Source: Patescibacteria group bacterium
Lineage (GTDB): Bacteria > Patescibacteriota > Minisyncoccia > Phycocordibacterales > SBAW01
NCBI GenBank assembly: GCA_016176685.1
Contig: JACOWS010000002.1
Span: 30,608-94,607, forward strand
DNA length: 64,000 bases
Direction of reading: 5' to 3'
Below the pieces are notes generated by a model. It was not told where the DNA came from and searched no databases. It saw only the letters and a program-made list of their open reading frames with translations. Of the stretch, positions 1,968 to 49,012 are shown piece after piece (the first letter of the stretch is position 1; the number at the start of each line of letters is the position of its first letter). The translations under genes were made by a program, and so were the position numbers.

Positions 1968-2030
1968 CACACCTGCTCAAGAGGGTAGGACTTGGCCTAG
2001 CGGCCCGGAGCGCCCTCTTGAGCAGGTGTG
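1968..2030 (+). repeat. Family 1 conserved-loop hairpin element, copy 1 (18-bp perfect stem plus 27-nt conserved loop TAGGACTTGGCCTAGCGGCCCGGAGCG)
   Basis: cacacctgctcaagaggg / ccctcttgagcaggtgtg is a perfect inverted repeat around the conserved core. It lies just 3' of the aminopeptidase stop. Confidence 0.85.
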
Positions 2031-2043
2031 TTGGCTAAATTAT

Positions 2044-2766
2044 ATGCCCATAACGGTTAAAACTCCTGTGTACGAAGGGCCGCTCGACCTCCTTTTGGAG
2101 TTGGTGGAGAAGCGCAAGCTGCTCATTAACGACATCTCGCTGGCAGCCGTGACCGAAGAATATTTAGAGCGCGTCAACGCTATGGCAAGCGCCCCCGTAG
2201 GGGAAACGGCGGAGTTTGTCGCGCTCGCCGCCACGCTCCTCCTTATAAAATCCCGATCGCTATTGCCTTTTCTATCCCTAACCGGCGAAGAGGAGCGAGA
2301 CATTAAAGAGCTCGAGTACCGCCTTGCGCTTTACCAGATTATTAAAAAGGCTGGGAGCGGTGTTGCTGCAGCCATGAGCGCCCCCTACCTATTTGAGGGA
2401 GGTGAGCCAGAACCAGCGCCTTTATATGCTCCCGACCTTTCTGTAACAGTGGAAAGTATAAGCAATGCGGTGCATGCTCTTATCGACGGCTTTCCGCAAG
2501 CACTCATGCTACCAAAGGTTGCGGTCAAAAAAATGGTTTCGCTTGAAGAGATGGTGACGCGGCTCGAGGCGCGGGTCAGTAATGCCCTGCGCCTTTCGTT
2601 TAAAGAGTTTTCAGGGCTTGGAAAACGCGAGCGTACCGAGGTGGTGGTGAGCTTTTTGGCGCTCCTGGAGCTGGTAAAAAGGGGTATAATAAAAGTCACA
2701 CAGGAGCGAGACTTCGGGGATATTATGCTTGAGTCTGATTCTGTTTCTACACCTACATATGAATGA
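2044..2766 (+). CDS. scpA: Segregation and condensation protein A (ScpA)
   Basis: N-terminus 'PVYEGPLDLLLELVEKRKLLINDISLAAVTEEYLE' is typical of ScpA. It overlaps the downstream scpB. Confidence 0.85.
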   Translation: MPITVKTPVYEGPLDLLLELVEKRKLLINDISLAAVTEEYLERVNAMASAPVGETAEFVALAATLLLIKSRSLLPFLSLTGEEERDIKELEYRLALYQIIKKAGSGVAAAMSAPYLFEGGEPEPAPLYAPDLSVTVESISNAVHALIDGFPQALMLPKVAVKKMVSLEEMVTRLEARVSNALRLSFKEFSGLGKRERTEVVVSFLALLELVKRGIIKVTQERDFGDIMLESDSVSTPTYE

Positions 2767-3322
2767 CCGAGAGCTTATTACACGTCTAGAGGCTCTCCTT
2801 TTTGCGCTGGGGCCATTAAGCCGCGAGGAGCTTGCTAAGTCTCTTGATGTACCTCTGCCGGAGTGCGAGAGGGTTCTTGCGACACTGATTATGGAAAGCC
2901 GTACACGCGGGGTGGTGGTTGTATACGACGGCTCCATGGCCGAGATGCGCGCTTCGCCGCAAGCCGCGGAGCATATAGAGCGTGTGCGTAAAGAAGCGTT
3001 TACCAGAGAAATAGGCCGCGCAGGGCAAGAGACATTGGCCGCGGTGTTGTACCGGGGGCCGCTCACCCGCAGCGAGATAGACTTTATACGCGGGGTCAAC
3101 TCGAGCCACATCCTGCGCACGCTTACCATGCGCGGGTTGGTGCGCAAAGTGGCGAACCCAAAAGATACGCGCTCCTTTTTGTACGAACCCACCACCGAAA
3201 CGTACGCACACCTGGGGGTGCAGGGGCGCGGCGACTTGCCCGGCTATACGACGGTGCGCCAACAGCTGGCCGCGCTTGAGGAAACCTATCGTTCCGAGCA
3301 GGACTCAACCAACTCATCATGA
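2759..3322 (+). CDS. scpB: Segregation and condensation protein B (ScpB)
   Basis: 'LEALLFALGPLSREELAKSL...' winged-helix ScpB signature; start chosen at MNDREL. Confidence 0.8.
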   Translation: MNDRELITRLEALLFALGPLSREELAKSLDVPLPECERVLATLIMESRTRGVVVVYDGSMAEMRASPQAAEHIERVRKEAFTREIGRAGQETLAAVLYRGPLTRSEIDFIRGVNSSHILRTLTMRGLVRKVANPKDTRSFLYEPTTETYAHLGVQGRGDLPGYTTVRQQLAALEETYRSEQDSTNSS

Positions 3323-3329
3323 TATCTAT

Positions 3330-4226
3330 ATGATAAAACCCATCACTCTTACTCGCACTACCTACACTTTTTTATTCGCAACAGCTTCTCTGTGTCTTGC
3401 GGTACTCATCACCATACAGGTGCCGCCATTTATGGGCGTGCCGGTTGAAGCTAAGGAGCTGGCGGTATTCCCCGCTCCTATCACGCTTCCCGCGGAGGAT
3501 ATAGCAGCAAAAGCGGCCGTGCTTTATGACCCAACCACCGGCCAGATTTTATTTGCAAAAAATGCTACAAGGCCTCTCGCGCTCGCGTCCCTTACCAAAC
3601 TCATGACCGCGCAGGTCATTTTGGCTCAATCCAGCGAACAGCAGGTAGTTACCATTACTTCGCAAAACTTGCGGCCGGAAGGCGACTGGGGTCTCCGTCC
3701 CGGAGAGAAGTGGTCGGTTGAGCAATTGCTGCGCTTTGGTCTTGTCGCTTCAGCAAACGACGCAATGGCCGCAGCCGCGGATGCCATTGGCCCCACCATT
3801 ATCGACGAGATGAACCGCACCGCAAGGGTCTTGGGGCTTTCGCAGACGCACTTTTCAAACCCTACCGGGTTGGATCTCGACCTGGAAACCGCCGGGGCGT
3901 ATGGGTCGGCCTACGATGTCGCGCTTCTTGCAACCTCTTTTATGCAACGCTATCCGACTCTTTTGGGGGCTACCGCCCAGCCGTCAGTTACCATAACTTC
4001 AGGCGAAGTACAGCTTAACGCCACCTCAACCGACACGCCGCTCTTGGACATCCCAGGGCTAGTAGGTGCAAAAACAGGATACACTGACCTGGCAGGCGGC
4101 AACCTTATTGTTGTGTTTGATGTAGAGATAGGACATCCGCTTATTGCGGTTGTGCTCGGTTCAACGCGCGAAAAACGTTTTGATGATATACGTGCTCTGG
4201 TGGTGGCCGTGCGCGCCAAACGATAA
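3330..4226 (+). CDS. D-alanyl-D-alanine carboxypeptidase (serine-type, S11/PBP5-like)
   Basis: SxxK (SLTK), SxN (SAND) and KTG (KTGYT) motifs; N-terminal signal/TM segment. Confidence 0.8.
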   Translation: MIKPITLTRTTYTFLFATASLCLAVLITIQVPPFMGVPVEAKELAVFPAPITLPAEDIAAKAAVLYDPTTGQILFAKNATRPLALASLTKLMTAQVILAQSSEQQVVTITSQNLRPEGDWGLRPGEKWSVEQLLRFGLVASANDAMAAAADAIGPTIIDEMNRTARVLGLSQTHFSNPTGLDLDLETAGAYGSAYDVALLATSFMQRYPTLLGATAQPSVTITSGEVQLNATSTDTPLLDIPGLVGAKTGYTDLAGGNLIVVFDVEIGHPLIAVVLGSTREKRFDDIRALVVAVRAKR

Positions 4227-4233
4227 ATAACGT

Positions 4234-5289
4234 ATGACTACTTTAGACCTAATGCGCATATTTTTGCCATCCTTGATCGCATTCCTCTTTGGCGTGGGGA
4301 TGACGCCGTTTGTAAGTCATGTGCTTTATACGTACCGCTTTTGGAAGCCGCGCGCGGGGAAAATCGGACTCGATGGCACGCCCGCCGAAACTTTTAACCG
4401 TCTGCATGAAAAAAGAGAAGTCGGCACGCCGCGCGCCGGGGGCATCTTGGTGTGGGGAAGTGTACTGGTAACCGCAGGGGTCTTGAGACTCCTCTCTATT
4501 AATTTTCCCGAGGTGTTTGCACAAATTGATTTTATCAGCCGCACCCAAACCTGGCTGCCGCTTGCGGCTTTAGCGGCGGGAGCCCTGGTGGGTTTCGCAG
4601 ACGATTACTTCGAAGTGCGCGGGCGCGGCGGTTTGCCATTGCGTGTGCGCCTGCTTGCGGTGGCCATGGTAGCGTCGTTTTGCGCCTGGTGGTTTTTTAG
4701 CAAGCTGGGGGTGTCGGCGATTTCTTTCCCGTTCGTGGAGGGGCCGCTAGAGCTTGGGTGGCTGTTTATACCGTTTTTTGTTTTGACCGCGTTATTTTTA
4801 TACGCCAGCGGCGTTATAGACGGAATAGACGGACTTTCAGGCGGTGTCTACGGAGCAATTTTTGCCGCATACGCAGGGCTCGCATTTTTCCAAAACCAGA
4901 TGGACATCGCCGGGCTGTCTGCAGCAATAACCGGGGCTCTCTTGGCGTTTTTATGGTTTAACATCCCGCCAGCCCGCTTTTACCTTTCTGAAACGGGGAC
5001 CATGGGGCTCGCACTCGCACTGACCGTTATAGCATTTTTAACAGATGCGCACGGTTACGGACGCGGAGTGCTGGCTCTCCCGGTTATTGCGTTTCCGTTG
5101 GTGGTGACCGTTCTGTCTGTCATAGTACAGATGTCTTCCAAAAAACTTTTTGGGCATAAAATCTTACGCGTTGCGCCGCTCCACCATCACTTTGAAGCAA
5201 TAGGTTGGCCGGCATACAAGGTAACCATGCGATACTGGGTCGTCAGTATGATTGCCGCCATTATAGGCCTTTCTATAGCGCTATTGTGA
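4234..5289 (+). CDS. mraY: Phospho-N-acetylmuramoyl-pentapeptide transferase MraY
   Basis: Polytopic membrane protein with 'IDGIDGLSGG' and 'HHHFE' MraY signatures. Confidence 0.9.
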   Translation: MTTLDLMRIFLPSLIAFLFGVGMTPFVSHVLYTYRFWKPRAGKIGLDGTPAETFNRLHEKREVGTPRAGGILVWGSVLVTAGVLRLLSINFPEVFAQIDFISRTQTWLPLAALAAGALVGFADDYFEVRGRGGLPLRVRLLAVAMVASFCAWWFFSKLGVSAISFPFVEGPLELGWLFIPFFVLTALFLYASGVIDGIDGLSGGVYGAIFAAYAGLAFFQNQMDIAGLSAAITGALLAFLWFNIPPARFYLSETGTMGLALALTVIAFLTDAHGYGRGVLALPVIAFPLVVTVLSVIVQMSSKKLFGHKILRVAPLHHHFEAIGWPAYKVTMRYWVVSMIAAIIGLSIALL

Positions 5290-6383
5290 GGAAGCCCGTT
5301 GACACCGCCTTTTTACTCACCGCGAGCGCTCTGGTCGTAGCCGGGCTCCTTATATTTACCTCTGCGGCTCTTGGGCTTTTGGCACGCGACGGAGGGGCCA
5401 CGTTTACCTCGGTGGCGGTCAGCCAACTCTTGCTTGGACTGGTGTGCGGGGGCATTCTGAGCTACCTTCTTGCCCGCACAGACTACCGCTTGTGGCGCCG
5501 ATACACGCCATACCTCTTTGGCTTTGCCCTGCTACTCACCCTGCTGACTCTTATCCCTCACGTAGGACTTACGCTTAAGGGAGCGTCGCGTTGGATTTCT
5601 CTTGGTCCCATCTCCTTTCAACCGTCAGAGTTGTTAAAGTTTGCGACGGTGGCGTTTCTCGCCGCGATGTATGCCACGCATTACAAACAAATAAGAACCT
5701 GGCGCTGGGGCATACTCCCGCTCATCCTTATAGCCGGCAGTGCGACTCTTGTGGTTTTACGCCAGCCAGACACCGCGAGCGCCATGGTGATAGCTCTGTC
5801 CGCAGTGGTTATGTTGTTTACTGCCGGGGGTAAACTTTCGCATCTGGCGCTCCTGGCTCTTATAGGAGTGTCTTTAGTCGGTTTTGCCGCCTACGAGCGT
5901 CCCTATGTGGCCGAACGCCTGCTGACTTTTATCAACCAGGGAGCCGACCCGCAGGGCGCCGGCTGGCAAATACAGCAGTCGCTTATATCGGTTGGCTCCG
6001 GAGGTCTCTTTGGCCGCGGATTTGGACAAAGCATAGAAAAGTTTTCCTACCTGCCGGAGCCTATCGGCGACTCGATTTTTGCAGTTGCCGGTGAGGAGTT
6101 TGGGTTTGTTGGTTCCGGAATACTCCTTGGACTCTTTGTCGCCTTTGCCGTGCTGGGGCTCCGGATAGCGGCGCGCGCGCCAGACCCGTTTGGCGGCCTT
6201 TTGGCTGTTGGCATCGTGGTCTTGATAGTTGGGCAGTCGTTTTTTAACATTGCTTCAACGCTCGGACTGGTACCCTTGGTGGGAGTTCCGCTTATATTTG
6301 TCTCGCACGGCGGGACCGCGCTTGCTATAGCGCTCATCGAGGTGGGAGTGCTGTTGAGTGTCTCTCGACGGATGAAAAAATAA
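5286..6383 (+). CDS. ftsW: SEDS family peptidoglycan polymerase FtsW (or RodA)
   Basis: 'LPEPIGDSIFAVAGEEFGF' SEDS motif; position between mraY and murG. GTG start overlaps the mraY stop. Confidence 0.8.
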   Translation: MRKPVDTAFLLTASALVVAGLLIFTSAALGLLARDGGATFTSVAVSQLLLGLVCGGILSYLLARTDYRLWRRYTPYLFGFALLLTLLTLIPHVGLTLKGASRWISLGPISFQPSELLKFATVAFLAAMYATHYKQIRTWRWGILPLILIAGSATLVVLRQPDTASAMVIALSAVVMLFTAGGKLSHLALLALIGVSLVGFAAYERPYVAERLLTFINQGADPQGAGWQIQQSLISVGSGGLFGRGFGQSIEKFSYLPEPIGDSIFAVAGEEFGFVGSGILLGLFVAFAVLGLRIAARAPDPFGGLLAVGIVVLIVGQSFFNIASTLGLVPLVGVPLIFVSHGGTALAIALIEVGVLLSVSRRMKK

Positions 6384-6408
6384 CAGAGTCTGCTACACTA
6401 CAAAGGAC

Positions 6409-15492: not shown

Positions 15493-15648
15493 GGACACCT
15501 CCTCCTCTGTATGACCAGTTGACTGAACTAGTGCAAAAAATAACACAAGTTTGTTAAATAAGCAAGTATTTAAAACAAGGATCTCCCCCACCCCGCACAC
15601 TCAACAAAACCGCCCCGGGGTTGCCGGAGCGGTTTTGTTTTGTATTGC

Positions 15649-17135: not shown

Positions 17136-17206
17136 CGGGCCGTAGTATACCGGTAGTACGCGTCCATGGGGTGGATGTAGACCGGGTTCAATTCCCGGCG
17201 GCCCGA
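17136..17206 (+). tRNA. tRNA-Pro (anticodon GGG)
   Basis: Cloverleaf fits: acceptor cgggccg/cggcccg with C1-G72 and A73 (Pro identity), D-stem gtat/gtac, anticodon stem cgtcc/ggatg, loop AUGGGGU, T-arm ccggg-TTCAATT-cccgg. CCA is not encoded. Confidence 0.65.
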
Positions 17207-17222
17207 AATAGTGCGCAGGAAG

Positions 17223-17297
17223 AAAACCCGCTGCAATTTTAAAGGGTAAGACTTGGCCTAGCGGCCCGGAGCGCCCTTTAAAATTGCAGCGGGTTTT
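17223..17297 (+). repeat. Family 1 conserved-loop hairpin element, copy 2
   Basis: 24-bp perfect stem aaaacccgctgcaattttaaaggg / its reverse complement around TAAGACTTGGCCTAGCGGCCCGGAGCGC. It lies between tRNA-Pro (+) and the exonuclease gene (-). Confidence 0.85.
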
Positions 17298-17301
17298 CGG
17301 A

Positions 17302-17901
17302 CTATACCCAGGGGATAGCAAACTGCTCAAATTCCGGCAGGAGTTTTTTGTCGGAGAGGAGGCGCGAGATAACCTCCGCGTGGCTTTTGGCGCCGGTCAA
17401 AGCGTTGTGGGGGGTCGGCTCTTCGGGGATGCCGCAGTACAGCAGTATAGCATCAAGATTGAGCGCGGAGTGTTTTTTTTCTGGGTCTAATGGGGGAGTG
17501 AGTCCCCTCTTTACCATGTGCATCCAGGCAAGCGAGTGGCTGTCTATCGTGCGATGGGCAAAGGGCCACTCTGTGTGCCCCGCACGGCCTGCGGCGTATT
17601 TTAAAAAATCGCGGTCAAACGACGGGTTCTGCCCGGCAAAGGTCCTGTCCCCCGCCTTGAGCGCCCAGGTAATAAATTGATGCACCAATTCCCCTTCGCT
17701 TTGTTTGTTAGGGTCCCCCGCCTCCTCGCGCGTAAAGCCGTTGACCGCGAGCGCCTCGTCTTCTATCTTGGCGCCGTCCCACGCCCGACACTCGGCATAA
17801 AAGGTGGGCCGCGCCGGATTGTCGAGGTCGACAGCTCCCACGCTTAAAATTGAGTGTTTGTGGGCCTCGGTGCCGGTTGCTTCTACATCAACTGCGAGCA
17901 T
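17302..17901 (-). CDS. DEDDh 3'-5' exonuclease (DnaQ/RNase T-like domain)
   Basis: Exo I 'AVDVEATG' and Exo III 'HNALTGAKSHAEV' motifs. Confidence 0.75.
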   Translation of the reverse strand: MLAVDVEATGTEAHKHSILSVGAVDLDNPARPTFYAECRAWDGAKIEDEALAVNGFTREEAGDPNKQSEGELVHQFITWALKAGDRTFAGQNPSFDRDFLKYAAGRAGHTEWPFAHRTIDSHSLAWMHMVKRGLTPPLDPEKKHSALNLDAILLYCGIPEEPTPHNALTGAKSHAEVISRLLSDKKLLPEFEQFAIPWV

Positions 17902-24319: not shown

Positions 24320-24943
24320 TTGCGTATGAACCCGCTTGAGCGCCTAACCAAAAACTTTGAACGGTTCCCCGGCATTGGCCCCCGGCAGGCAAGACGCTTT
24401 GTGCAGTTTTTACTTGTACAGCAGGGCGCCTATCGCACGGCGCTCGCCGACGACATCAAACGTCTCGGGGCAAACTCCTTCCAGTGCAAAAAATGTTTTC
24501 GGTGGTCGGTTAAAAACGGCAGCTCGCACGCCGTGTGTACTATATGTAGAGATGCTCACCGTGAGACCGGGCTTTTATGTGTGGTGGAAAAAGACGCCGA
24601 CCTCGACAACGTCGAGCGCAGCGGCTTTAAGGGTCTCTACTTTGTTTTGGGAGGGACCATACCTCTCGCCGCCGAAGAGCCAGAGGCCCATGTCCGCGCA
24701 CGAGAGTGTATAATGCGCATAGAGGAAGACGGCACTAAGGGTGTGTTAAAGGAGGTTATTTTGGGCCTCTCCGCCACCACCCTAGGCGACCACACCAGGG
24801 GCTTCCTACAAGAAAAGATACTGCCTATAGCGCAAGCGCTCAATTTTAAAATTACATCACTGGGTCGCGGGCTCTCAACCGGCTCGGAGCTGGAATATGC
24901 CGACCCGGACACCATCGCCAGCGCATTATCCTCTAGATACTAG
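24320..24943 (+). CDS. recR: Recombination protein RecR
   Basis: HhH 'FPGIGPRQARRF', C4 zinc finger and Toprim domain. Confidence 0.9.
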   Translation: MRMNPLERLTKNFERFPGIGPRQARRFVQFLLVQQGAYRTALADDIKRLGANSFQCKKCFRWSVKNGSSHAVCTICRDAHRETGLLCVVEKDADLDNVERSGFKGLYFVLGGTIPLAAEEPEAHVRARECIMRIEEDGTKGVLKEVILGLSATTLGDHTRGFLQEKILPIAQALNFKITSLGRGLSTGSELEYADPDTIASALSSRY

Positions 24944-25018
24944 AGAAACAAAAAAGTCCTTTGTACAGGAGTAGGGCTCCCGTTCATCTCTCCGGAACAA
25001 AGGACTTTTTTGTTTCTC
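24943..25018. repeat. Family 2 conserved-loop hairpin, copy A (22-bp perfect stem; loop contains GGAGTAGGGCTCCCGTTCATCTCTCC)
   Basis: gagaaacaaaaaagtcctttgt / acaaaggacttttttgtttctc around a 32-nt loop. It fills the gap between the recR stop (+) and the rplU stop (-). Confidence 0.8.
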
Positions 25019-25359
25019 TACGCAATCTTTGTTATCTTTACCTCAAAAAAGGGCTGGCGGTGGCCGCGTTTTTTAAAATAGTTGGACTTTGCTTTGTACT
25101 TGATAACCACCACCTTCTTGGCGCGGTCTATTTTTTGTATCTCTGCCGAAACCTTAGCCCCCGCAATGTAAGGCGTCCCCAAGGTGGTGTCTTTTCCATT
25201 GTCTACCACTAGCACCTTGTCAAAAGTTACCGCGTCGCCAATCGCGTAAGCTCCCTGCTCCGGGCTTGCAGGAGCAAGCTTCTCTATTTTGAGGGTGTCA
25301 CCCTGGGATACCATATACTGTTTCCCGCCGGTTTCTATGATGGCAAACTCCTTTTGCAT
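25018..25359 (-). CDS. rplU: 50S ribosomal protein L21
   Basis: 'MQKEFAIIETGGKQYMVSQGDTLKIEKL' L21 N-terminus. The longer track ORF is a read-through of the adjacent hairpin. Confidence 0.9.
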   Translation of the reverse strand: MQKEFAIIETGGKQYMVSQGDTLKIEKLAPASPEQGAYAIGDAVTFDKVLVVDNGKDTTLGTPYIAGAKVSAEIQKIDRAKKVVVIKYKAKSNYFKKRGHRQPFFEVKITKIA

Positions 25360-25405: not shown

Positions 25406-25489
25406 GATGAGAATCCGCAGCCATTTTGGATGGTAAGACTTGGGTCTTTAGCGGCCCGGAGCGCCATCCAAAATGGCTGCGGATTCTCA
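25406..25489 (+). repeat. Family 1 conserved-loop hairpin element, copy 3 (loop variant with a 3-nt insertion)
   Basis: 27-bp perfect stem atgagaatccgcagccattttggatgg / its reverse complement; loop TAAGACTTGGGTCTTTAGCGGCCCGGAGCGC. It lies just 3' of rmuC and 5' of rplU. Confidence 0.85.
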
Positions 25490-25496
25490 TATTGTA

Positions 25497-29821: not shown

Positions 29822-29894
29822 GCTGACAAGGCAAAAAAAGAGAGTAAGACTTGGCCTAGCGGCCCGGAGCGCTCTCTTTTTTTGCCTTGTCAGC
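29822..29894 (+). repeat. Family 1 conserved-loop hairpin element, copy 4; supplies the last codons and TAG stop of the FAD oxidase gene
   Basis: 22-bp perfect stem gctgacaaggcaaaaaaagaga / its reverse complement around TAAGACTTGGCCTAGCGGCCCGGAGCGC. The minus-strand reading of the arm plus core gives ...ADKAKKESAPGR*. Confidence 0.85.
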
Positions 29895-31631
29895 TGTGGT
29901 AACCGGCAAATCCAGGTGTGCAAACGCGTCGGAAAAGGTCGTCCCCACCTTTTTTCCTGGGTTAAAGATATTTTGCGGGTCAAATATTGACTTTACTTCG
30001 TGGAAGAGTGCAAACATCTCCTTTCCAAACATCTTTTCCACATAGGGCGTGCGGACTAGCCCGTCGTTATGCTCGCCGGTGATAGAGCCGTGGTAGGAAA
30101 GCACCAGGTCGTACACTTTGTGAGAAAGTTCGTCCAGTACCTTTCGCACACCGGGGTCCCGCGGGTCGACCAGAGGAATAATATGAAAGTTGCCGTCGCC
30201 CACATGGCCCGCAACCGTGTAGGTAAGCTTGTAGCGCGAGAGTATCTTTTCAAGTTTCGGCAAAAATTCAACAAGCGACGACGGGGGCACCACAAAGTCG
30301 TCTATAAAAGGGGCGGTGCGGCGGCCGACCACTTTTTTACGCAAGAGGTTAAAACTCTCGCGCCGCACCACCCAGTATTTGCGTGCGGCTCGCTTTGTCT
30401 TTGCAACGCGCACTTTCAGGTGTGTGCGGTTCTGCCTCACCTCCTGTGCAAGAGCTTGGGCTTTTCCTGTTGCCTCTTTTTGGGTCTCGGCACGGAACTC
30501 TACCAAAAGCACCAGCTTGGGCACCCCGCCGGAGAGCACCATCCACACTTCCGGCAAAAATGAGAGCCCCAGTTTAACCAGACCAACTATTCCGCCCAAG
30601 GCGAATTGGCCTTGGGCCGACATTTGTTGGGCAAACTCAAAGAAGTACTTGGTTGCCAGAGTAAACGTATGGTCGTCGTACGACTCAAAGCTGTCCGGCT
30701 CGTGCTTTAAAACCTCCGGCACCACCTCGCCAAGTTCGGACAGCGAGCGGAGGAAAATGACGGTCATCGCGGCATAGGGTTTGGGGCGCACCAGAGTGAA
30801 CCATATTTTTGTGATGATGCCGAGCGTACCCTGGGCTCCCACCATAAGGCGCGCCAAGTTAAGCGAGGGAGTACCGCCTGCCCGGCCTTCCGACGGATCG
30901 CCCACCTCCCACAGCGCATAGCCGGAGGAATTTTTTTCAACCTTTGGTTTGTGCTCCGCTATCACCTTGCGGTGCAGGGGGGTGCTTATCAGTGCGCGGA
31001 CACGGCGGTACACGCTACCTTCCCACGAGTCTTCGGCAAGTTTTTGCTGTAACTCCTCCCCTTCCAGTTTTTTAAAGTGATGTACCGCTCCGTCGGCGCA
31101 CACGACGTCGAGCTTTTCTACATACCGGGCAGTTTTGCCGTATTTTAAGTTCTTTTCCCCGCCGGAGTCGTTGGCAACCATGCCGCCTACGGCGTTGAGC
31201 TCGCGGCTGGCGGTATAGCTTGGGAGTTCCAGCCCCTTCTTCTTCGTCTCTTTGTCAAAGTCGCGGAAAAACATCCCCGGCTCTGCCACCGCATGGCCTG
31301 CCACTCCCGCGGCGCCGGGGATAGCATCAAGCTCCAGCAGGCGGTGTAGGTGTTTAGTGACGTCCAGGACTATAGAGTCGCCCAAGGGGCCTCCACCCAT
31401 GTCTGTACCCGCCGCGCGCGGGGTAATGGAGAGGTGCGTCTTGGGGACCTTTTTCTTTTCGTCTACAAAGCGCACTGCGGCGCAGATATCCTCCGCGTCT
31501 TTTGGATACACTACAACCTGCGGCCGCACGGCAAACAAGCTCGCGTCGCGACTGTAATGCGCCAAGGTCTCTGGCGAGTCATCCACCTCGCCGCGCAGTA
31601 TTTTACGCAGTTCTTCCCCCAAACTGCTCAT
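29856..31631 (-). CDS. FAD-binding oxidoreductase (FAD-linked oxidase, GlcD/D-lactate dehydrogenase-like)
   Basis: PCMH-type FAD-binding domain motifs and a C-terminal oxidase domain; 591 aa. Confidence 0.8.
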   Translation of the reverse strand: MSSLGEELRKILRGEVDDSPETLAHYSRDASLFAVRPQVVVYPKDAEDICAAVRFVDEKKKVPKTHLSITPRAAGTDMGGGPLGDSIVLDVTKHLHRLLELDAIPGAAGVAGHAVAEPGMFFRDFDKETKKKGLELPSYTASRELNAVGGMVANDSGGEKNLKYGKTARYVEKLDVVCADGAVHHFKKLEGEELQQKLAEDSWEGSVYRRVRALISTPLHRKVIAEHKPKVEKNSSGYALWEVGDPSEGRAGGTPSLNLARLMVGAQGTLGIITKIWFTLVRPKPYAAMTVIFLRSLSELGEVVPEVLKHEPDSFESYDDHTFTLATKYFFEFAQQMSAQGQFALGGIVGLVKLGLSFLPEVWMVLSGGVPKLVLLVEFRAETQKEATGKAQALAQEVRQNRTHLKVRVAKTKRAARKYWVVRRESFNLLRKKVVGRRTAPFIDDFVVPPSSLVEFLPKLEKILSRYKLTYTVAGHVGDGNFHIIPLVDPRDPGVRKVLDELSHKVYDLVLSYHGSITGEHNDGLVRTPYVEKMFGKEMFALFHEVKSIFDPQNIFNPGKKVGTTFSDAFAHLDLPVTTADKAKKESAPGR

Positions 31632-32258: not shown

Positions 32259-32921
32259 CTACCCCTTTTTGTCGAGAACAAACCGCCACGGCTTGTTTAC
32301 ATACTCACCCGCGGAGTCAATGCCGATGCGCGGGGTGCATCGCACTTGACCACGCCCTACCTCTACTCCTCTGTCCTCAACCCACAGGCCGGTCTTTTTG
32401 CCGAGCGGTTTGTTGTTTAGCTTTTTGTCTACCTGCAAAAACTTGGTGAGTTTTGCCGGACCGTCAAGGCGCACGCCAACAGGGCGAAAAAAGAGGGCGC
32501 TCCGGGCCGCTAGGCCAAGTCCTACCCTCTTTTTTCGCCCTGTTGGCGGCAGCTCACCGTGTGACAAGATTCGACTTTGCCATTGCGGTTCAAGGCCGCG
32601 TATCAGAACAGCCGCAGGATATCTTTCTTTCCCGCACACCAGGTTAAGCATCCAGTGCATGCCGTAGGTAAAGTACACGTACACCACTCCGGGGCGGCCA
32701 AACATCGGCGTGTTGCGAGCGGTTTGCCCGCGGTGGGCATGGCTGGCTTTGTCTCTTGGGCCGTCGTACGCTTCGGTCTCAACAATCATAAGTGCTACTT
32801 CACTGCCCCGTACCCTGCGCACTAAAAATTTTCCCACAAGTTCCCGCGCCACGGTAAGTGTTGGCCGGTCAAAAAACGCCGCTTGTAGAACTTTGCGCAT
32901 AGGTTGCATGATACGCAACAT
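32259..32921 (-). CDS. mpg: DNA-3-methyladenine glycosylase (Mpg/AAG family) carrying an in-frame hairpin-element insertion
   Basis: 'FLVRRVRGSEVALMIVETEAYDGPRDKASHAHRGQTARNTPMFGRPGVVYVYFTYGMHWMLNLV...IRGLEP...DGPAKL'. The 220-aa length equals a typical roughly 196-aa Mpg plus a 24-aa insert. Confidence 0.85.
   Translation of the reverse strand: MLRIMQPMRKVLQAAFFDRPTLTVARELVGKFLVRRVRGSEVALMIVETEAYDGPRDKASHAHRGQTARNTPMFGRPGVVYVYFTYGMHWMLNLVCGKERYPAAVLIRGLEPQWQSRILSHGELPPTGRKKRVGLGLAARSALFFRPVGVRLDGPAKLTKFLQVDKKLNNKPLGKKTGLWVEDRGVEVGRGQVRCTPRIGIDSAGEYVNKPWRFVLDKKG
32475..32545 (-). repeat. Family 1 conserved-loop hairpin element, copy 5, embedded in-frame in mpg (translated as PPTGRKKRVGLGLAARSALFFRPVG)
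   Basis: 22-bp perfect arms ccaacagggcgaaaaaagaggg / reverse complement around GTAGGACTTGGCCTAGCGGCCCGGAGCGC on the gene strand. The reading frame is preserved. Confidence 0.85.
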
Positions 32922-43161: not shown

Positions 43162-43455
43162 CTAGTATAGCGTTTCCGACTGCATTCTGCCTAAAAGGTA
43201 GCGTTTGGCGAGCGCGCGGCCGAGCATCGCGGCAAGCGCGATAATCGTAAAAGGAAACCATACAAAGTGCGGCGCGCCCATGGGCGCGCCGTAGGCAATA
43301 TCAAACAAAAGACCCATCGCTATGGCAAACAAGTACCGGCCCGAGAGTCCCGCAAGCAGTATGCCGAGTGCCGAGAGCGGCCACAAAGGGAGCAAAAAGC
43401 CGAGTGCGGCGAGGAGGAAGCTGGCGGCGAGGAGGAGGCGGGTTTTGTTCATCAT
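43162..43455 (-). CDS. mreD: Rod shape-determining protein MreD-like
   Basis: 97-aa multi-TM protein immediately downstream of mreC. Confidence 0.55.
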   Translation of the reverse strand: MMNKTRLLLAASFLLAALGFLLPLWPLSALGILLAGLSGRYLFAIAMGLLFDIAYGAPMGAPHFVWFPFTIIALAAMLGRALAKRYLLGRMQSETLY

Positions 43456-44264: not shown

Positions 44265-45312
44265 ACTCTAAAAATACATCCCGGTAGGCGTCAAGGTTTT
44301 CCAAAATAACACCGGTGCCGCGCGCCACGGCGGTCAAGGGGTCGTCGGCAACCACCACCGGGACCTTGAGCCATTGCGAGAGCAGTTGGTCGAGCCCTTT
44401 AAATAGCGCTCCCCCGCCGACAAGCACTATACCCTGCCGCATTATGTCGGAGAGGATTTCGGGCGGCGTAGTTTCAAGCACCTCGCGGATAGTTTCAACC
44501 AGCGTGTCCATAGACTGCGAGACGGCCTCGCGGATGTCGGAGTCGGTTATTATAACCTCGCGAGGGAGCCCGGTTATAAGGTCGCGGCCGCGCACCACCG
44601 CCTCGAGGTGCCCGCCACCTTCTGTGACAGAGCCGATAGCAACTTTAACGTTCTCGGCGGTCTTTTCGCCTATCAAAATCTTAAATTCAGAACGTAGGTG
44701 AGAGATGATGTCTTGGTCGAGCTTGTCGCCCGCTATTCTAAGATTTTTTGAGCGCACGACTCCGCCGAGAGAGAGAACGGCAATGTCCGTGTTGCCGCCG
44801 CCAATGTCGACTATCATGCTCCCCATAGCCTCGCGTATGGGGAGGCGCGTGCCGATTGCCGCGGCCATCGGCTCTTCGACAATGTAAACTTCTCGGGCTC
44901 CGGCGTTGCGCGTCGCGTCTTTAACCGCGCGTATCTCTACATTGGTGATGCCGCTTGGCACGCCTATCACCACGCGCGGGCCCAATAGTTTGCGCGCGGT
45001 ACCTGCCGGCGAGCTCTGCGCGCGGTTTATAAGGTACGCAAGCATCTCTTCGGTCGCCTCAAAGTCCGACACCACACCCTCTACCAATGGGCGCACGGCG
45101 GCCAAGTGCCCGGGGGTCCTTCCGAGCATTGCTTTGGCAACACTCCCCACCGCCACCACCTGGCCGGTTTTTTGGTTGACCGCCACTACCGAGGGCTCGG
45201 TCACCACGATGCCCTTGCCGCGCAAATATACCAGCGTGTTTGCCGTGCCAAGGTCTATCCCGAGGTCGTTGGAAAAAATCGGAAACACTCGGTTTGTAAT
45301 CAGTTTAAACAT
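44245..45312 (-). CDS. mreB: Rod shape-determining protein MreB (paralog 1)
   Basis: 'LGIDLGTANTLVY...' actin-fold motifs; start at MFKLI. Confidence 0.9.
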   Translation of the reverse strand: MFKLITNRVFPIFSNDLGIDLGTANTLVYLRGKGIVVTEPSVVAVNQKTGQVVAVGSVAKAMLGRTPGHLAAVRPLVEGVVSDFEATEEMLAYLINRAQSSPAGTARKLLGPRVVIGVPSGITNVEIRAVKDATRNAGAREVYIVEEPMAAAIGTRLPIREAMGSMIVDIGGGNTDIAVLSLGGVVRSKNLRIAGDKLDQDIISHLRSEFKILIGEKTAENVKVAIGSVTEGGGHLEAVVRGRDLITGLPREVIITDSDIREAVSQSMDTLVETIREVLETTPPEILSDIMRQGIVLVGGGALFKGLDQLLSQWLKVPVVVADDPLTAVARGTGVILENLDAYRDVFLEYDDDFS

Positions 45313-46561
45313 GGGTAAGGCGCGTCTGCAGTTCTGAAATGGAGAGATGCTGAGTTTTGCCGCCCTTGCGCTCGGTACACTCAAACGCTCCTTCGGACAG
45401 CGTCTTTTCCGACACCACCACTCTAAGAGGAACGCCCAAAAGGTCGCTGTCGGAAAACTTTTCCCCCGCGCGCAAGTCGCGGTCGTCCCACAACACCTCT
45501 ATGCCGGCCTCGGTCAGCGTGCGATACAGCTCGCCGGCTTCTGCGGACACTTCCTTGTTGCCGCCGGAGAGCTCAACCAGGTGTACGGCAAACGGAGCGA
45601 TGGACTCGGGCCATACCATGCCCTTTTCGTCGCAGAGTAGTTCCACCACGGTGCCCATGGCGCGCGCCGGGCCGATACCGTAGGAGCCCATGACAACCGG
45701 CACAGACTCGCCCGCCTCGTTTTTATAGGTAAGCCCCAAGGGAGCCGAGTACTTGGTGCCAAGCGGAAAAATGTTGCCGACCTCTATTGACTTCGCCTCG
45801 CGCAGATAGGTCTTGTCGAGGCCTAGCGAGTCGAGCGTCTCGTCGTTGTATACCTCTTTGTTGACGGCAATATGCCGTCGCTCGTCTATATATATGGTGT
45901 CCTCGCCGGCATCCGACACGGTTTGGAACTCATCGCTAAACTTGCTGAACGAGCCGCCTGACGCAAAGGTGCGGAAGGTTTTGTCTCCGATCCCAAGCCT
46001 GTTAAAAATCCGTACATATGCCTCCGCACACTGCTCGTAAAACTCGCGGAACTCCTCTTGCGTTTTGCTGAATGAGTACAGGTCCTTCATGATAAACTCG
46101 CGGGTGCGCATGATGCCGCTCTTGGCCCGTAGCTCGTTGCGGAACTTGGTTTGGAACTGGTACACGTAGCGGGGCAGGTCTTTGTGGGAGGAGATGTGCT
46201 GGGTTAGAAGCCGCGTCAATGGCTCTTCGTGCGTGTTGGCAAATCCCACCTCTCCGCCCGCCTTAAGCTCCGACTTAAACCATATATCCACCACCTCGTC
46301 ATTCCACCGGCCGGAGACCTTCCACACCTCGGGCTCTTGGAGTGCGGTCATCGAAATTTCCTGCCCGCCGATGGCGTTCATCTCCCCGCGGATTACCGCC
46401 ATTATGTTGTTAAGTACCCGGAGCCCCAGCGGCAAAAAAGTGTAAGCCCCGGCCATCTCTTTGTGGATGTATCCGGCGCGTATTAGCAGCTGTGCGTTTT
46501 TAGAAACCTCGTCTTTTGGCGCCTCGCGGCGCGTCTTGGTAAACAATTGCGATTGGCGCAT
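45305..46561 (-). CDS. proS: Prolyl-tRNA synthetase
   Basis: Class II motifs; 'MRQSQLFTKTRREAPKDEVSKNAQLLIRAGYI' N-terminus; anticodon-binding C-terminal domain. Confidence 0.85.
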   Translation of the reverse strand: MRQSQLFTKTRREAPKDEVSKNAQLLIRAGYIHKEMAGAYTFLPLGLRVLNNIMAVIRGEMNAIGGQEISMTALQEPEVWKVSGRWNDEVVDIWFKSELKAGGEVGFANTHEEPLTRLLTQHISSHKDLPRYVYQFQTKFRNELRAKSGIMRTREFIMKDLYSFSKTQEEFREFYEQCAEAYVRIFNRLGIGDKTFRTFASGGSFSKFSDEFQTVSDAGEDTIYIDERRHIAVNKEVYNDETLDSLGLDKTYLREAKSIEVGNIFPLGTKYSAPLGLTYKNEAGESVPVVMGSYGIGPARAMGTVVELLCDEKGMVWPESIAPFAVHLVELSGGNKEVSAEAGELYRTLTEAGIEVLWDDRDLRAGEKFSDSDLLGVPLRVVVSEKTLSEGAFECTERKGGKTQHLSISELQTRLTHV

Positions 46562-46608
46562 ATGAGAGCCATTGTACGGCGAAACGGCAGGGGAAGCAAA
46601 AAGAGAAA

Positions 46609-47694
46609 CTAGCTTATGAGGCGGGTAATATCGTGGAAAGACACCAGCACCATAAGAGCGATGAGTAGCGCGAAGCCGCCCACGGTAAACCACAAGGTTA
46701 ACCGCTCCGGCAGGGGGCGGCGCGTCACACTTTCTATAAAGATAAAAAATAGCCGGCCGCCGTCGAGCCCCGGTATCGGCAAAATATTTAAAAGCGCCAG
46801 GTTTATTGAAATGAGCGCGGTTAGGGTTACCGCCGCGGCAAACCCGCTTGCGACCGCGCGGCTGCCTATGCCGGCTATCCCGATGGGCCCGGCGATGTCG
46901 GCAAAGTTTCCCGCACCGATGAAGAGCCCCGAAAAAAACTCTGCAAGACCTTCCGCCGTGGCGAGAGTCATGCGGTAGGTCAAGATACCGCCCTCAAGTA
47001 GCGCCAGGTGGGGCGGCAAGGTAAGCACGCCGACATCGTCGAGGTTGATGCCCACCGCCTTGCGCCCGGGCACCAGTCCCGCTTCCGCTTTTGCCAAAAA
47101 GTGCTCCTCGGCGCCGTCGCGCAGTACCGTAAATACGATGCTTTCTTCCTGATGCTCTGTTATAAACGTTTGTACCTCGGCCGAGGAAGCGCCTTGGTGG
47201 AGTGCCGCGCTACCGGTGTCGATATTTTCAACTACATCGCCCGGCAAAAGCCCGGCACGCGCCGCAGGCGAGTCCGGGAAAACGCCCACGACGGTAGCGC
47301 GTACATCGGTGACAGCGCCAAACCCGACATGCTCCGCCGAGGTCGGAAGCCCCGCCAGGTAGCCCGCGGAAAGCACCAACCAGGCAAATAGTATATTCAT
47401 CACGATGCCGGCCGCGATGACTGCCGCCTGCTTGGGCCGGGACTTGCTTGCAAATGCGCGCGGATTGCTTCCCGCCTCATCTTTTCGTTCGCCAAAAATG
47501 CGCACAAAACCGCCAAAAAACAGCAAGTTTATAGAGTAGCGGGTTTCGCCCAATTGGAGCGAGAGTAGACGCGGCGGGAAGCCGATGCCGAACTCCTCCA
47601 CCTTTATACCAAAAAGTTTTGCCGCAAAAAGGTGCCCGAACTCGTGCACGACAATAAGCCCGGTCAATATGAGTATAAATATGAGAAGCGACAT
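46609..47694 (-). CDS. rseP: RIP metalloprotease RseP (site-2 protease, M50) with PDZ domain
   Basis: 'HEFGHLFAAKLFGI' HExxH and 'NILPIPGLDGG' LDG motif. Confidence 0.85.
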   Translation of the reverse strand: MSLLIFILILTGLIVVHEFGHLFAAKLFGIKVEEFGIGFPPRLLSLQLGETRYSINLLFFGGFVRIFGERKDEAGSNPRAFASKSRPKQAAVIAAGIVMNILFAWLVLSAGYLAGLPTSAEHVGFGAVTDVRATVVGVFPDSPAARAGLLPGDVVENIDTGSAALHQGASSAEVQTFITEHQEESIVFTVLRDGAEEHFLAKAEAGLVPGRKAVGINLDDVGVLTLPPHLALLEGGILTYRMTLATAEGLAEFFSGLFIGAGNFADIAGPIGIAGIGSRAVASGFAAAVTLTALISINLALLNILPIPGLDGGRLFFIFIESVTRRPLPERLTLWFTVGGFALLIALMVLVSFHDITRLIS

Positions 47695-47698
47695 AGTG

Positions 47699-48250
47699 CT
47701 AGGCGGCTATCTCCTTTTCCTTGCGTGCCAGCGCCTCGTCAAAGAGCTTGTTGGCCGCATCAACGCGTTTTTGCATTTCGTCTTTGGCGCGGAACTTGTC
47801 ATCTTCCGCCATTTTTTTGTCTTTTTCCTGCTTTTGGATGTCGTTCCATGCATCGTCTCGCGCCGCCCGCAGCTCTTTGCGCACATCTTCAACCTTTTCT
47901 TTTGCGAGCTTCAGCAGCATAGTGCGGCGCTCGGAGGTAAGCTCGGGGAAAAAGACGCGCACACCTTTTTCGTCGCTCCCGACCGAGAGTCCCAAATTTG
48001 CCACGGTGATGGCCTTTTCTATTTCCTTGCCTAAGCTGTGGTCCCACGGGGTAATGCGCAATGTCCGCGCATCCTCAACGGAAATAGTTGCCACCTGCGG
48101 CAAGGTCATCCGCGAACCAAAAGACTCCACGGTAACGCCGTCCAGTATTGCCGGTGTGGCGCGCCCAGTGCGCACGCCCGCAAGCTCTTTGCCGAGCCGC
48201 TCGACTATATCTGCAACACGCTTTCCGAATGGTTTAAAGTCGTATGCCAT
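47699..48250 (-). CDS. frr: Ribosome recycling factor
   Basis: Full-length RRF similarity ('...RTGRATPAILDGVTVE...'). Confidence 0.9.
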   Translation of the reverse strand: MAYDFKPFGKRVADIVERLGKELAGVRTGRATPAILDGVTVESFGSRMTLPQVATISVEDARTLRITPWDHSLGKEIEKAITVANLGLSVGSDEKGVRVFFPELTSERRTMLLKLAKEKVEDVRKELRAARDDAWNDIQKQEKDKKMAEDDKFRAKDEMQKRVDAANKLFDEALARKEKEIAA

Positions 48251-48263
48251 CGCTTTTAGTATA

Positions 48264-48926
48264 TCAAACTCTAAATTTTTTTGCCGCCTTGGAATATGTC
48301 TTTACCAGTGGGTCTTGGCTTGTGTCGTAGCGCCTCGCGGGTGCCAGGTATCGGCCGTAGTGTATGACCCGGTTTGAAAAAGAGCCCCACTCTTTTTTGG
48401 GCAAGAGCTGCATTAAGTCTTTTTCAATCTTGACAGGGTTGCGGTGGTTTGAGAGGTCAAACCGGTGCACAAAACGTATCATGTGTGTGTCCACGGTAAC
48501 CCCCGCGACAGTGCCATATACCTCTTGCAAAACCACGTTGGCGGTTTTGCGCGCCACACCCGGCAACAGCAAAAGCTCTTCCATAGTGCGCGGCACCGAG
48601 CCCTTAAACTTGGCCTTAACCATTTTGGCCGCGGCCAAAATGGTTTTTGTTTTATTGCGATAAAAGCCGCTAGACTTTATGTCTTGCTCAAATGCGCGCG
48701 GCCGTGCCAGTACATACGCTTCGAGTGTTTTATATTTTTTAAAAAGCTTCTTTGTAATTTTGTTGACCATTTTGTCAGTGCACTGCGCAGAAAGTTGCAC
48801 CGCCACCACAAGCTCCCATGGGGTATGGTAGGTAAGTTCTATTTCCGCATTGGGAAAAAGCTTTTTAAGCGCCCGGTTGAGTTTTTGTATCCGCACCTTT
48901 CTTTCTTTAAATATTTTAGGATTCAT
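48264..48926 (-). CDS. nth: Endonuclease III (Nth, HhH-GPD) lacking the C-terminal [4Fe-4S] cysteine ligands
   Basis: HhH 'LPGVARKTANVV' (catalytic Lys) and 'VDTHMIRF' (Asp). There are no Cys residues in the C-terminal 60 aa. Start chosen at MNPKIF; the upstream extension is read-through of the hairpin element. Confidence 0.8.
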   Translation of the reverse strand: MNPKIFKERKVRIQKLNRALKKLFPNAEIELTYHTPWELVVAVQLSAQCTDKMVNKITKKLFKKYKTLEAYVLARPRAFEQDIKSSGFYRNKTKTILAAAKMVKAKFKGSVPRTMEELLLLPGVARKTANVVLQEVYGTVAGVTVDTHMIRFVHRFDLSNHRNPVKIEKDLMQLLPKKEWGSFSNRVIHYGRYLAPARRYDTSQDPLVKTYSKAAKKFRV

Positions 48927-48934
48927 ACGTATTT

Positions 48935-49012
48935 CAGCCAGCGGAGCAAAAAAAGAGGGCACTCCGGGCCGCTAGGCCAAGTCTAACCCTCTTTTTTTGC
49001 TCCGCTGGCTTG
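48935..49012 (-). repeat. Family 1 conserved-loop hairpin element, copy 6 (core variant TTAGACTTGGCCTAGCGGCCCGGAGTGC); supplies the holB-like C-terminus and TAG stop
   Basis: 25-bp arms cagccagcggagcaaaaaaagaggg / reverse complement. On the gene strand the arm plus core reads ...ASGAKKEG-TAG. Confidence 0.85.

Follow-up and report, generated by a model that had tools for sequence, protein, structure and literature searches.

The window (the whole stretch of 64,000 nucleotides that was analysed) carries six copies of a hairpin repeat, here called family A, which is a previously undescribed palindromic repeat family of ultra-small Patescibacteria (CPR). We give a probability of about 0.9 to the claim that the window copies are members of a genuine family of hairpin repeats spanning the phylum, with the properties stated plainly below. 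Six copies had been listed in the first-pass annotation, and a covariance model trained on 108 family members and run on the window with filters off returned exactly six, at 66-86 bits. The runners-up, which were reverse strands and other hairpins, reached at most 28 bits, so that six can be taken as the full count of the window. The earlier listing of hairpin families had left out a second one (B), which has a different conserved loop and two copies in the window. The copies of both families are as follows.

Family A copy 1, 1964-2034 (+): arms of 22 nt, 95% complementary; 84.3 bits; an M29 aminopeptidase gene (709-1944, +) stops 20 nt before it and scpA follows, the module being sense to the flanking genes.
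Family A copy 2, 17222-17298 (+): arms of 25 nt, 100% complementary; 83.4 bits; 16 nt 3' of tRNA-Pro (17136-17206, +), abutting the stop codon of an RNase T-like exonuclease gene (17302-17901, -) that runs convergently.
Family A copy 3, 25407-25490 (+): variant module GACTTGGGTCTTTAGCGGCCCGGAG (A2); arms of 27 nt, 100%; 66.1 bits; in the interval that separates the rmuC stop (25497) from the rplU start; the module is antisense to rmuC and rplU alike.
Family A copy 4, 29822-29894 (+): arms of 23 nt, 100% complementary; 85.7 bits; overlaps the end of an FAD-linked oxidase gene (29856-31631, -), namely its final 13 codons and stop, and lies upstream of a TGGTATAAT-like -10 belonging to the gene that follows; the module is antisense to the two genes.
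Family A copy 5, 32474-32548 (-): arms of 24 nt, 100% complementary; 83.7 bits; in frame within mpg (32259-32921, -; PF02245) and sense to it, encoding the peptide ..PPTGRKKRVGLGLAARSALFFRPVG..
Family A copy 6, 48936-49010 (-): module with C>T; arms of 24 nt, 100%; 83.0 bits; extends across the stop codon of a DNA pol III delta'-like gene (48983-49720, -) and stands before an HhH-GPD glycosylase gene (48264-48962, -); sense.
Family B copy 1, 24941-25020 (+, the folding strand being assigned by wobble excess): module GGAGTAGGGCTCCCGTTCATCTCTCC; arms of 31 nt, 94%; the palindrome opens on the recR stop (TAG, 24941-24943) and closes on the rplU stop (25018-25020) of these convergent genes.
Family B copy 2, 49718-49777 (+): module GGAGTAGGGTTCCCGTTCATCTCTCC; arms of 21 nt, 95%; flanked by the mreB stop (49784) on one side and the beginning of the pol III delta'-like gene on the other, with the module antisense to these genes; its stem AACCCTTTGC/GCAAAGGGTT reappears in a plain hairpin at 58494-58537.

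Each of the six family A copies folds as a single hairpin (z = -8 to -11 against shuffles), with 27 nt between the arms, or 30 nt in copy 3. The core GACTTGGCCTAGCGGCCCGGAGCGC, for which no chance occurrence is expected in the window, was found there five times with at most one mismatch (1989, 17250 and 29848 on the plus strand; 32497 and 48959 on the minus strand), and the sixth copy, near 25437 on the plus strand, has a core variant longer by 3 nt (GACTTGGGTCTTTAGCGGCCCGGAGCGC). The core had been described as invariant, which is right in so far as the module is near-invariant, but not for copy 3 with its variant or copy 6 with its C>T change. An exact-core scan detected at least 116 loci, every one of them in Patescibacteria/CPR, and conservation of the core within this sample is partly circular, because the copies were collected by requiring an intact core in each. 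The elements are about 84 nt long, and their density in this genome, 6 copies in 64 kb, is roughly six times that elsewhere, where about 1 extra copy is seen per 75 kb. The whole window searched against Rfam 15 at the gathering threshold gave only two tRNAs and a group I intron, with no hairpin family match; around copy 2, relaxing the cutoff to E=10 brought up nothing but spurious miRNA models of long hairpins, far under threshold, and the literature that we searched gave no match to the family A hairpins.

Conservation is concentrated at the apex, where a nearly invariant module consists of GUAR-GA, then the mini-hairpin CUUGGCC-UAGC-GGCCCGG, then AGCGC. The module sits atop a stem of about 29 bp whose sequence is free while its pairing and length persist; the stem varies at its base, and the outer arms are specific to each copy, as had already been seen in the window. 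The stem register is ungapped from k=3 to 31; the pairs U·G at k=3 and G-C at k=4 are invariant, and purine-purine pairs recur at k=5 and again at k=27-28. Paired cells make up 82.7% of the stem, compared with 57.4% after shuffling and 38-48% with slid partners, both sides have changed in 28 of the 29 stem pairs, and the covariation score is 0.603 vs 0.166. Within the mini-hairpin, a C-G to G-C swap is found in L021, L161 and L113. The prospect, raised at first, of a handful of copies without stem covariation is contradicted by these values together with the locus count, and none of the other outcomes named at first as speaking against the family was seen, neither identical stems nor a core matching a known IS terminal repeat. 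A third module family, C, brings the module dialects to A1, A2, A3, B and C, and the family B module also has GTAGG.

The constant module with copy-specific arms would fit a hairpin-based defence system whose guides or "spacers" are the arms and whose processing handle is the loop. Only the architecture favours this idea, which we regard as hardly credible: three window arms (22-24 nt) had no exact match in 2.9 million viral contigs, copies lie within housekeeping genes, no associated gene recurs near the copies, and the arms obey a family-wide consensus, an A-run followed by GNGGG, that carries A/T tracts. The two arm sub-lineages proposed earlier are likewise partly just this consensus.

Selection to fold acts on the strand that bears the module, regardless of the direction of the host gene. 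The mean fold energy of this strand is -41.2 kcal/mol against -35.2 kcal/mol for the antisense strand, and in 110 of 118 copies it is the better folder of the two. The strand specificity of the mismatches shows selection on one strand, with 129 G·U on the module strand vs 16 on the opposite one and 205 purine-purine vs 17 pyrimidine-pyrimidine mismatches, so that the module strand shows G·U and G·A where the opposite strand would show C·A and C·U. The G·U excess is present in tandem-sense (18:2) and tandem-antisense (17:4) contexts alike, and also in 13 verified genes in which the module is antisense to the mRNA (22:5, p=0.0015). Selection on a single-stranded hairpin, either RNA or ssDNA, had been proposed at first pass from the always-paired stems, and both the family-wide covariation and the strand-specific mismatches support it.

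The perfect pairing in the window is itself poor evidence of selection, because 4 of the 5 scored window copies have a stem that is Watson-Crick throughout k=4..26, as does only 1 of 103 copies elsewhere. The arms that had been called perfectly complementary are so at 100% in five copies, copy 1 reaching 95%. The window copies have lost the family's conserved non-Watson-Crick positions, and this points to young copies or to DNA-level palindrome self-correction.

Could the hairpin work as RNA, with its module bound by a conserved RNA-binding protein or ribonucleoprotein? Such a structured motif might serve in 3'-end protection or processing, or as a small RNA, and its antisense copies would be by-products of in-place inversion. 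G·U pairs, sheared G·A pairs and an internal loop closed by an invariant U·G are classic hallmarks of RNA, and the strong covariation with G·U pairs, the invariant U·G closing pair, the G·A pairs recurring at fixed positions, the compensatory swap in the mini-hairpin, the identical module across the classes of the phylum, and the location at mRNA and tRNA 3' ends all argue for it. Nevertheless, about half of the copies lie antisense to the gene that flanks or hosts them, the asymmetry is kept in the 13 verified genes whose mRNA is the other strand, and no Rfam family matches. Furthermore, no promoter signal at a fixed distance was found on either side of the copies, which disfavours an independent sRNA gene. 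On balance we consider an RNA motif doubtful, though with a real share of the probability.

Copies persist only just 3' of stop codons or at in-frame, permissive positions of genes. In the window, the distance from an intergenic copy to a stop codon or tRNA end is always 0-25 nt, in agreement with the early placement of five copies at 3' ends, and the position of copy 5 inside mpg was likewise borne out, in frame within the PF02245 coding sequence. Of the A copies 28 of 121, and of the B copies 17 of 47, lie in reading frames that run uninterrupted across the element and extend for 50 codons or more to either side of it. The host genes include ValRS, LeuRS, ArgRS, IF-2, DnaX, RarA, IscS, HemK, MiaA and MPG. 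Recognisable genes could be assigned to 23 of the 28 in-ORF A copies, some by Pfam and most by reading of the translation or by alignment, and RarA, HemK, ValRS and others have homologues without the inserted segment.

Like bidirectional intrinsic terminators, the elements stand right after stops, convergent pairs included (family B copy 1 exactly spans two convergent stops), with A and T tracts around a GC-rich stem. Among intergenic copies, an A-run and a T-run bracket the inner stem in 62% of those of family A and 83% of those of family B, flanking A/T tracts accompany 58 of 93 intergenic vs 10 of 28 in-ORF A copies (p=0.017), and plain long hairpins of the same genome have stem sequence in common with family B copy 2. 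It is nevertheless improbable that these are ordinary terminators whose oversized loop was conserved by common descent and gene conversion, since the structured loop measures 27-36 nt rather than the typical 3-8 nt and is conserved in sequence, 23-36% of copies lie within essential genes where termination would be harmful, the folding asymmetry tracks the module and not the direction of transcription, copy 1 is without a T tract, and termination leaves the phylum-wide identity of the 27-nt loop unexplained. The loop and the in-gene copies are in line with the early statement that the elements are not classical terminators; for most intergenic copies, position and A/T tracts fit a terminator, and those with flanking A/T tracts have probably been co-opted as bidirectional intrinsic terminators.

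Between close relatives, copies are gained, lost, inverted in place and swapped for other module families (A1, A2, B, C). At the orthologous loci of relatives, presence/absence was seen for copies 2 and 3, copy 2 being absent at the tRNA-Pro locus of L128 and the copy 3 site being empty in L125 and L145. A family B element occupies the copy 4 site in L157 and the mpg site in L120, and at the mpg site the same arms hold an A1 module in the window and an inverted A2 module in L117. At the locus of family B copy 1, the element is flipped between L125 and L145, with different and recompensated arms in flanks that are 99.5% identical, and family C offers a clean insertion polymorphism between L163 and L133. 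This presence/absence, in-place inversion and module swapping lend weight to the unusual mobile element that had been offered as an alternative, and loss or allelic recombination could also be a source of the presence/absence.

The element might also be a duplex or cruciform DNA site that serves a conserved DNA-binding function, such as nucleoid organisation or a DUS/USS-like uptake signal propagated through biased uptake and recombination; this would be compatible with an orientation independent of genes, with copies both in terminators and in frame within genes, with the existence of dialects, and with the replacement of alleles between near-identical strains; cultured Saccharibacteria are, moreover, naturally transformable. 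DUS/USS, however, are about 10-12 bp and need no covarying 29-bp stem, strand-specific G·U and G·A pairs are not expected of a duplex, and the density outside this genome is only about 1 per 75 kb, all of which makes this reading an unlikely one.

Taken as a whole, a non-autonomous RPE/REP-like palindromic DNA element that acts as a single-stranded hairpin is our tentative reading, held at slightly less than even odds. The single strand would most simply be ssDNA exposed in replication, repair or transposition, and the module would be a putative recognition site for a conserved trans-acting factor. Spread and inversion may proceed via copying or template switching between hairpins, and the perfect copy-specific arms of this genome may reflect recent proliferation, intra-palindrome template-switch correction in which a change in one arm is copied to the other, or both. 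Against such an element, Pfam revealed no transposase, recombinase or reverse transcriptase, and no RAYT (Y1 HUH transposase) gene, among the approximately 50 window ORFs, all of which are housekeeping or have no Pfam match; no gene recurs among the neighbours of the copies, and no target-site duplication or conserved terminal repeat was visible at the empty/filled pairs. The RNA-type G·U and G·A pairs and the invariant U·G also count against it. REP, RPE and other selfish repeats are usually limited to a species or genus, and a module that is identical across the classes of the phylum is more in keeping with a host function and a conserved partner in the cell.

Rickettsia palindromic elements (RPE) are short dispersed non-coding palindromes in the reduced genomes of host-dependent bacteria, found between genes and also in frame in conserved protein-coding genes, where they add a peptide segment; they are not known to have a transposase. 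Family A similarly inserts in frame in conserved protein-coding genes (mpg; RarA, HemK, ValRS). RPE are 100-150 bp, conserved along their length and restricted to one genus, whereas family A, compared with RPE by description, conserves only the apex of about 27 nt on a free stem, is about 84 nt long and is phylum-wide.

REP and REPIN sequences are small imperfect palindromes of 20-40 bp thought to act as ssDNA hairpins, with a GTAG-type (or CGTC) tag 5' of a small GC-rich hairpin. In family A, G(-4)T(-3)A(-2)R(-1) is present in 110, 110, 93 and 116 of 118 copies, two bases ahead of the mini-hairpin but inside the long stem-loop, a layout that may or may not be equivalent to that of GTAG-tagged REPs (PMC3733652). 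Both kinds of element sit at gene ends, where REPs affect termination and mRNA stability. REPs, in contrast, conserve the stem and are extragenic and species-specific, while family A conserves an apex on a long stem that differs between copies and is phylum-wide, with 28 of 121 copies in ORFs, in line with the early separation from REP/BIME elements. Correia, ERIC and BOX MITEs are also multi-copy, non-autonomous, hairpin-forming and variable between strains, and can act as terminators, but family A has no conserved terminal inverted repeats or target-site duplication and its arms are copy-specific.

Integron attC sites and the ssoA of rolling-circle plasmids work only as a folded single strand, so that one strand tolerates mismatches, a behaviour similar to that of family A. 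The ssoA terminal loop has a conserved TAGCGT ("CS-6"), which the TAGCGG tip of the module resembles over 5 nt, a likeness that may be chance. Unlike family A, with its conserved apex and copies dispersed among housekeeping genes, attC conserves the R''/R' boxes of the stem base rather than the loop, is variable in its centre and occurs in tandem cassettes, and ssoA is a plasmid element of about 150 nt.

A further thought, speculative and rather unlikely, is that the modules (A, B, C) are "hairpin-tip" units of about 30 nt and the entity truly replicated or recognised, copied in either orientation into the loops of existing palindromes or terminators. The route might be template switching via shared inner-stem microhomology, or a Patescibacteria-wide enzyme acting on single-stranded hairpins, and such copying could explain why one stem holds different modules and one site different families. 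If true, it would represent a new mode of sequence propagation or a new recognition system across the phylum, even within essential genes. With respect to GC skew, the orientation of the copies shows a weak bias (65 loci vs 40, p=0.006).

Family A, in which a near-invariant apical module sits on a variable stem, is a real and widespread repeat family of palindromic hairpins about 84 nt in full length, and it has apparently not been described before. The first-pass annotation had claimed six hairpin copies in the window; the 25-nt core was found five times at no more than one mismatch, with none expected by chance, and the sixth copy (copy 3) was confirmed as carrying a variant of the core longer by 3 nt, here called the A2 module as distinct from the usual A1. 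The arms, measured by repeat search at 22–27 nt, were perfectly complementary in five copies, as had been stated, whereas those of the remaining copy reached 95%. Every window copy folded into a single long hairpin (z −8 to −11). The covariance-model search that had been suggested, run with filters off and with a model trained on 108 family members, returned exactly the same six copies at 66–86 bits, while the rest of the window scored no higher than 28 bits; family A makes up about 1% of the window sequence.

A core scan in which each species was represented by a single genome yielded at least 116 loci for the pattern GACTTGG-N(2-8)-TAGCGGCCCGGAG; the sampled copies were selected by an intact core. 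The titles among the matches listed (80 of 116) were all Patescibacteria/CPR under their labels as deposited, and the taxa among the matches listed included Saccharibacteria (Nanosyncoccus among them), Paceibacterota/Parcubacteria, Kaiserbacteria, Adlerbacteria, Nomurabacteria, Peribacteria, and Minisyncoccia. No relevant match was found in Rfam 15, either for the whole window at the gathering threshold or for the copy 2 region at E values up to 10, and a full-text literature search that included the core sequence did not find a description of the family. RPE and REP-type elements are the closest analogues, but the architecture of family A is inverted, in that the loop stays constant while the stem is free.

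In the core-anchored alignment, near-invariance extended beyond the core to G(-8)..R G U A R on the 5′ side and C G C on the 3′ side, and the stem register was ungapped from k=3 to about k=31, where k is the stem pair position.

Stem positions of family A
k=3: U·G, invariant
k=4: G-C, invariant
k=5: purine-purine or Watson-Crick pair
k=8: G-C
k=9-14: A/U-rich
k=27-28: tandem A·G/G·A, frequent

Standard pairs filled 82.7% of the cells in the gap-free alignment of 108 copies, compared with 57.4% in shuffled controls and 38–48% for slid partners; in the 108-copy alignment both sides changed at 28 of the 29 stem pairs, and the covariation score was 0.603 versus 0.166. The apical mini-hairpin CUUGGCC-UAGC-GGCCCGG was invariant in this sample by construction, since it was fixed in the search pattern, but it varied among the copies found by the model, with C8-G15 changed to G8-C15 at three loci (L021, L161, and L113), single changes that yielded U·G, and a shorter variant, GTTGAATYGGCCTAGCGGCCCGAGCGC. 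Comparison by eye with K-turn, loop-E, T-loop, SRP domain IV, and 5S rRNA/23S helix 43 gave no fit. Two loci outside the window carried copies of unusual build, the second resembling an element that has been duplicated in part and in tandem.

L078 1200-1300 (−): family A copy with a nested perfect palindrome, TCCGCCAGCTGGCGGA, in place of the apical mini-hairpin
L031 1777-1919 (−): two family A modules at a spacing of 84 nt, with the 5′ arm in common

Folding of one strand, the module-bearing one, is under selection. With the loop swapped for GAAA, the mean fold energy was −41.2 kcal/mol for the module strand and −35.2 kcal/mol for its complement, and the module strand folded better in 110 of 118 copies. 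When the 5′ arm was compared with the reverse complement of the 3′ arm, G·U-type mismatches numbered 129 on the module strand against 16 on the other, and purine-purine mismatches in family A numbered 205 against 17 pyrimidine-pyrimidine ones. The G·U asymmetry was 18:2 with flanking genes running along the module and 17:4 with flanking genes running against it, and it was 22:5 (p=0.0015) in 13 in-gene copies whose module is antisense to the mRNA. These copies, hosted by IF-2, MiaA, LeuRS, TruB, DnaX, ArgRS, RarA (two), IscS (two), HemK, O-antigen ligase, and MPG, were oriented by genes recognised from translation or Pfam, not by the longest ORF; at L040, the true gene faces a long ORF on the other strand. 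The strand asymmetry is thus independent of host gene direction, indicating that the module strand is selected to fold and that this strand is often not the mRNA.

The best-supported reading is that family A is a non-autonomous palindromic DNA element working as a single-stranded hairpin. Its main rival, an RNA structure bound by a conserved protein, gives the better account of module identity across the phylum, but it is hard to square with a strand asymmetry that persists where the module is antisense to verified genes, and with the want of promoters; no −10-like signal was found at a fixed upstream distance on either strand, which speaks against an independent sRNA gene. A signal bound or taken up as duplex DNA is less likely than a single-stranded hairpin for these strand-asymmetric elements. 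The GC-skew profile of the window was uninformative on replication-linked orientation; across the A-family loci L001–L116, GC skew of the module strand was slightly negative (65 versus 40 loci, p=0.006), a bias that family B did not share; this may reflect a slight preference in orientation with respect to replication or coding-strand composition.

Two further hairpin families, B and C, have other loops.

24941-25020: B1, family B, conserved loop GGAGTAGGG(C/T)TCCCGTTCATCTCTCC
49718-49777: B2, family B, same conserved loop
L163 5077-5147 and L133 5093-5169, also L141: family C, shared loop core CAGGTCAGCGAGGGGA

Family B was found at 49 loci in the metagenome scan, co-occurs with A on four contigs (L130, L150, L161, and L165), and has as its folding strand, judged by wobble excess, the one beginning GGAGUAGG. 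Family C shows a clean insertion polymorphism, directly adjoining a B element in L163, with the otherwise near-identical L133 being without it.

Each intergenic A copy of the window (five in all), like the two B copies, is located within 0–25 nt of a stop codon or of the 3′ end of a tRNA; B1 starts at the recR stop and ends at the stop of the convergent rplU, and alignments place copies 3 and 4 between the stop codon and the −10-like box of the following gene. Of these five A copies, three are sense and two antisense to neighbouring genes. An A tract and a T tract around the inner stem were present in 58 of 93 intergenic copies versus 10 of 28 in-ORF copies (p=0.017), an enrichment predicted by co-option as bidirectional terminators, and from these sequence features intergenic copies probably serve as such. 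That the family consists of terminators and nothing else is less likely: an ORF reads uninterrupted through 28 of 121 A copies and 17 of 47 B copies and extends for 50 codons or more to either side, a class in which ORF calls are crude except where Pfam or translation was checked. In-gene copies make use of every one of the module's four stop-free frames (GLGLAARSA, TWPSGPER, ALRAARPS, and RSGPLGQV). In protein alignments, the in-gene segment is missing from short CPR MPGs of about 175 aa, the window's own RarA is without the segment present in L019, L057, and L097, and the segment in ValRS, where L001 and L008 were compared with L040 and L048, has homologues without it.

The first-pass annotation had suggested comparing orthologous loci for presence or absence, and such differences were found, copy 3 being missing in L125 and L145 (flanks 80–90% identical to the window) and copy 2 being missing after tRNA-Pro in L128. 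At the copy 4 site, L157 carries a B element with unrelated arms and its folding strand on the same strand. The site in mpg holds an A1 module in the window and L119, an inverted A2 module on the same arms in L117, and a B element in L120; the mpg homologues P0011 and P0016 have another insert at the same position (..RPLRGGLAGQTFSQ.., alignment columns ~118–165), whose sequence may represent a further element family. In HemK and in RarA, orthologues have the element at one shared position but in opposite orientations. The sequences around the B element of L125 and L145 agree at about 99.5% over ~350 nt to either side, yet the element itself is flipped between the two, with many arm differences that are matched by compensating changes in the partner arm. 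An internal ValRS site has family A in L040 and L113, and in L001 (~4250-4290, ValRS coding region) the same site has a perfect 14-bp palindrome, GACCGCATCGCTCG CAA CGAGCGATGCGGTC, which is a stem without a module. On the best-supported reading, the family A element turns over, flips, and swaps its apical module, and it survives solely at the ends of genes or in frame at positions that tolerate it.

Between the filled and empty copy 3 sites, the difference is the whole element plus ~15 extra bases, and the arms are unlike the flanks, so that arms made as a fold-back copy of adjacent host sequence were rejected. Neither a target-site duplication nor a conserved terminal repeat was seen at the filled and empty sites compared, no transposase was found among the window genes, and no neighbour gene recurred beside the copies, since clustering of flanking ORFs gave housekeeping families only. 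Spacer-like arms are a less likely explanation of the free stem than a palindromic DNA element, and these as well as a phage origin were rejected, as neither the cores of A and B nor three arms from the window had an exact match in viral contigs.

Family A is dense in the window, with six copies per 64 kb versus about one further copy per 75 kb elsewhere (ascertained copy excluded). Four of five scored window copies are fully Watson-Crick over k=4..26, compared with 1 of 103 elsewhere, and window copies have even lost the non-Watson-Crick pair that the family usually has at k=5. Template-switch correction of quasi-palindromes is established in E. coli, and the perfect window stems are better explained by recent proliferation, by such correction at the DNA level, or by both, than by selection.

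Patescibacteria, whose genomes are tiny, comprise a large share of bacterial diversity and can hardly be handled in the laboratory. In these supposedly streamlined genomes, family A contributes variation to both genome and proteins, with host genes that include aminoacyl-tRNA synthetases, IF-2, and DnaX, and is likely part of transcription termination. It also offers a handle for tracing a putative conserved nucleic-acid-binding factor and a practical marker for CPR metagenome-assembled genomes, as well as a hazard for mis-assembly and mis-annotation, and its constant loop and free stem, together with module swaps on a fixed stem, provide a natural setting in which self-correction and inversion of palindromes can be studied cleanly.

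The window also contains plain perfect hairpins (16–20 bp, loops of 4–5 nt, A/T-rich outer ends) that look like terminators, and two features of other kinds.

58494-58537: plain hairpin, stem AACCCTTTGC/GCAAAGGGTT in common with B2
54141-54179, 59970-60007, and 15603-15639: plain hairpins
57965-58254 (+): tRNA gene, anticodon loop split by a 213-nt group I intron
60666-61202 (+): DUF2726 protein, weak matches to restriction-endonuclease-like families (MTES_1575, DUF559)

The intron matched Rfam RF00028 at 56.7 bits (57986-58205), and its tRNA was called tRNA-Thr(tgt) by ARAGORN with introns allowed and tRNA-Tyr(gta) with the intron removed by hand. The DUF2726 gene lies in a lower-GC stretch (~0.48–0.51) at the right end of the window.
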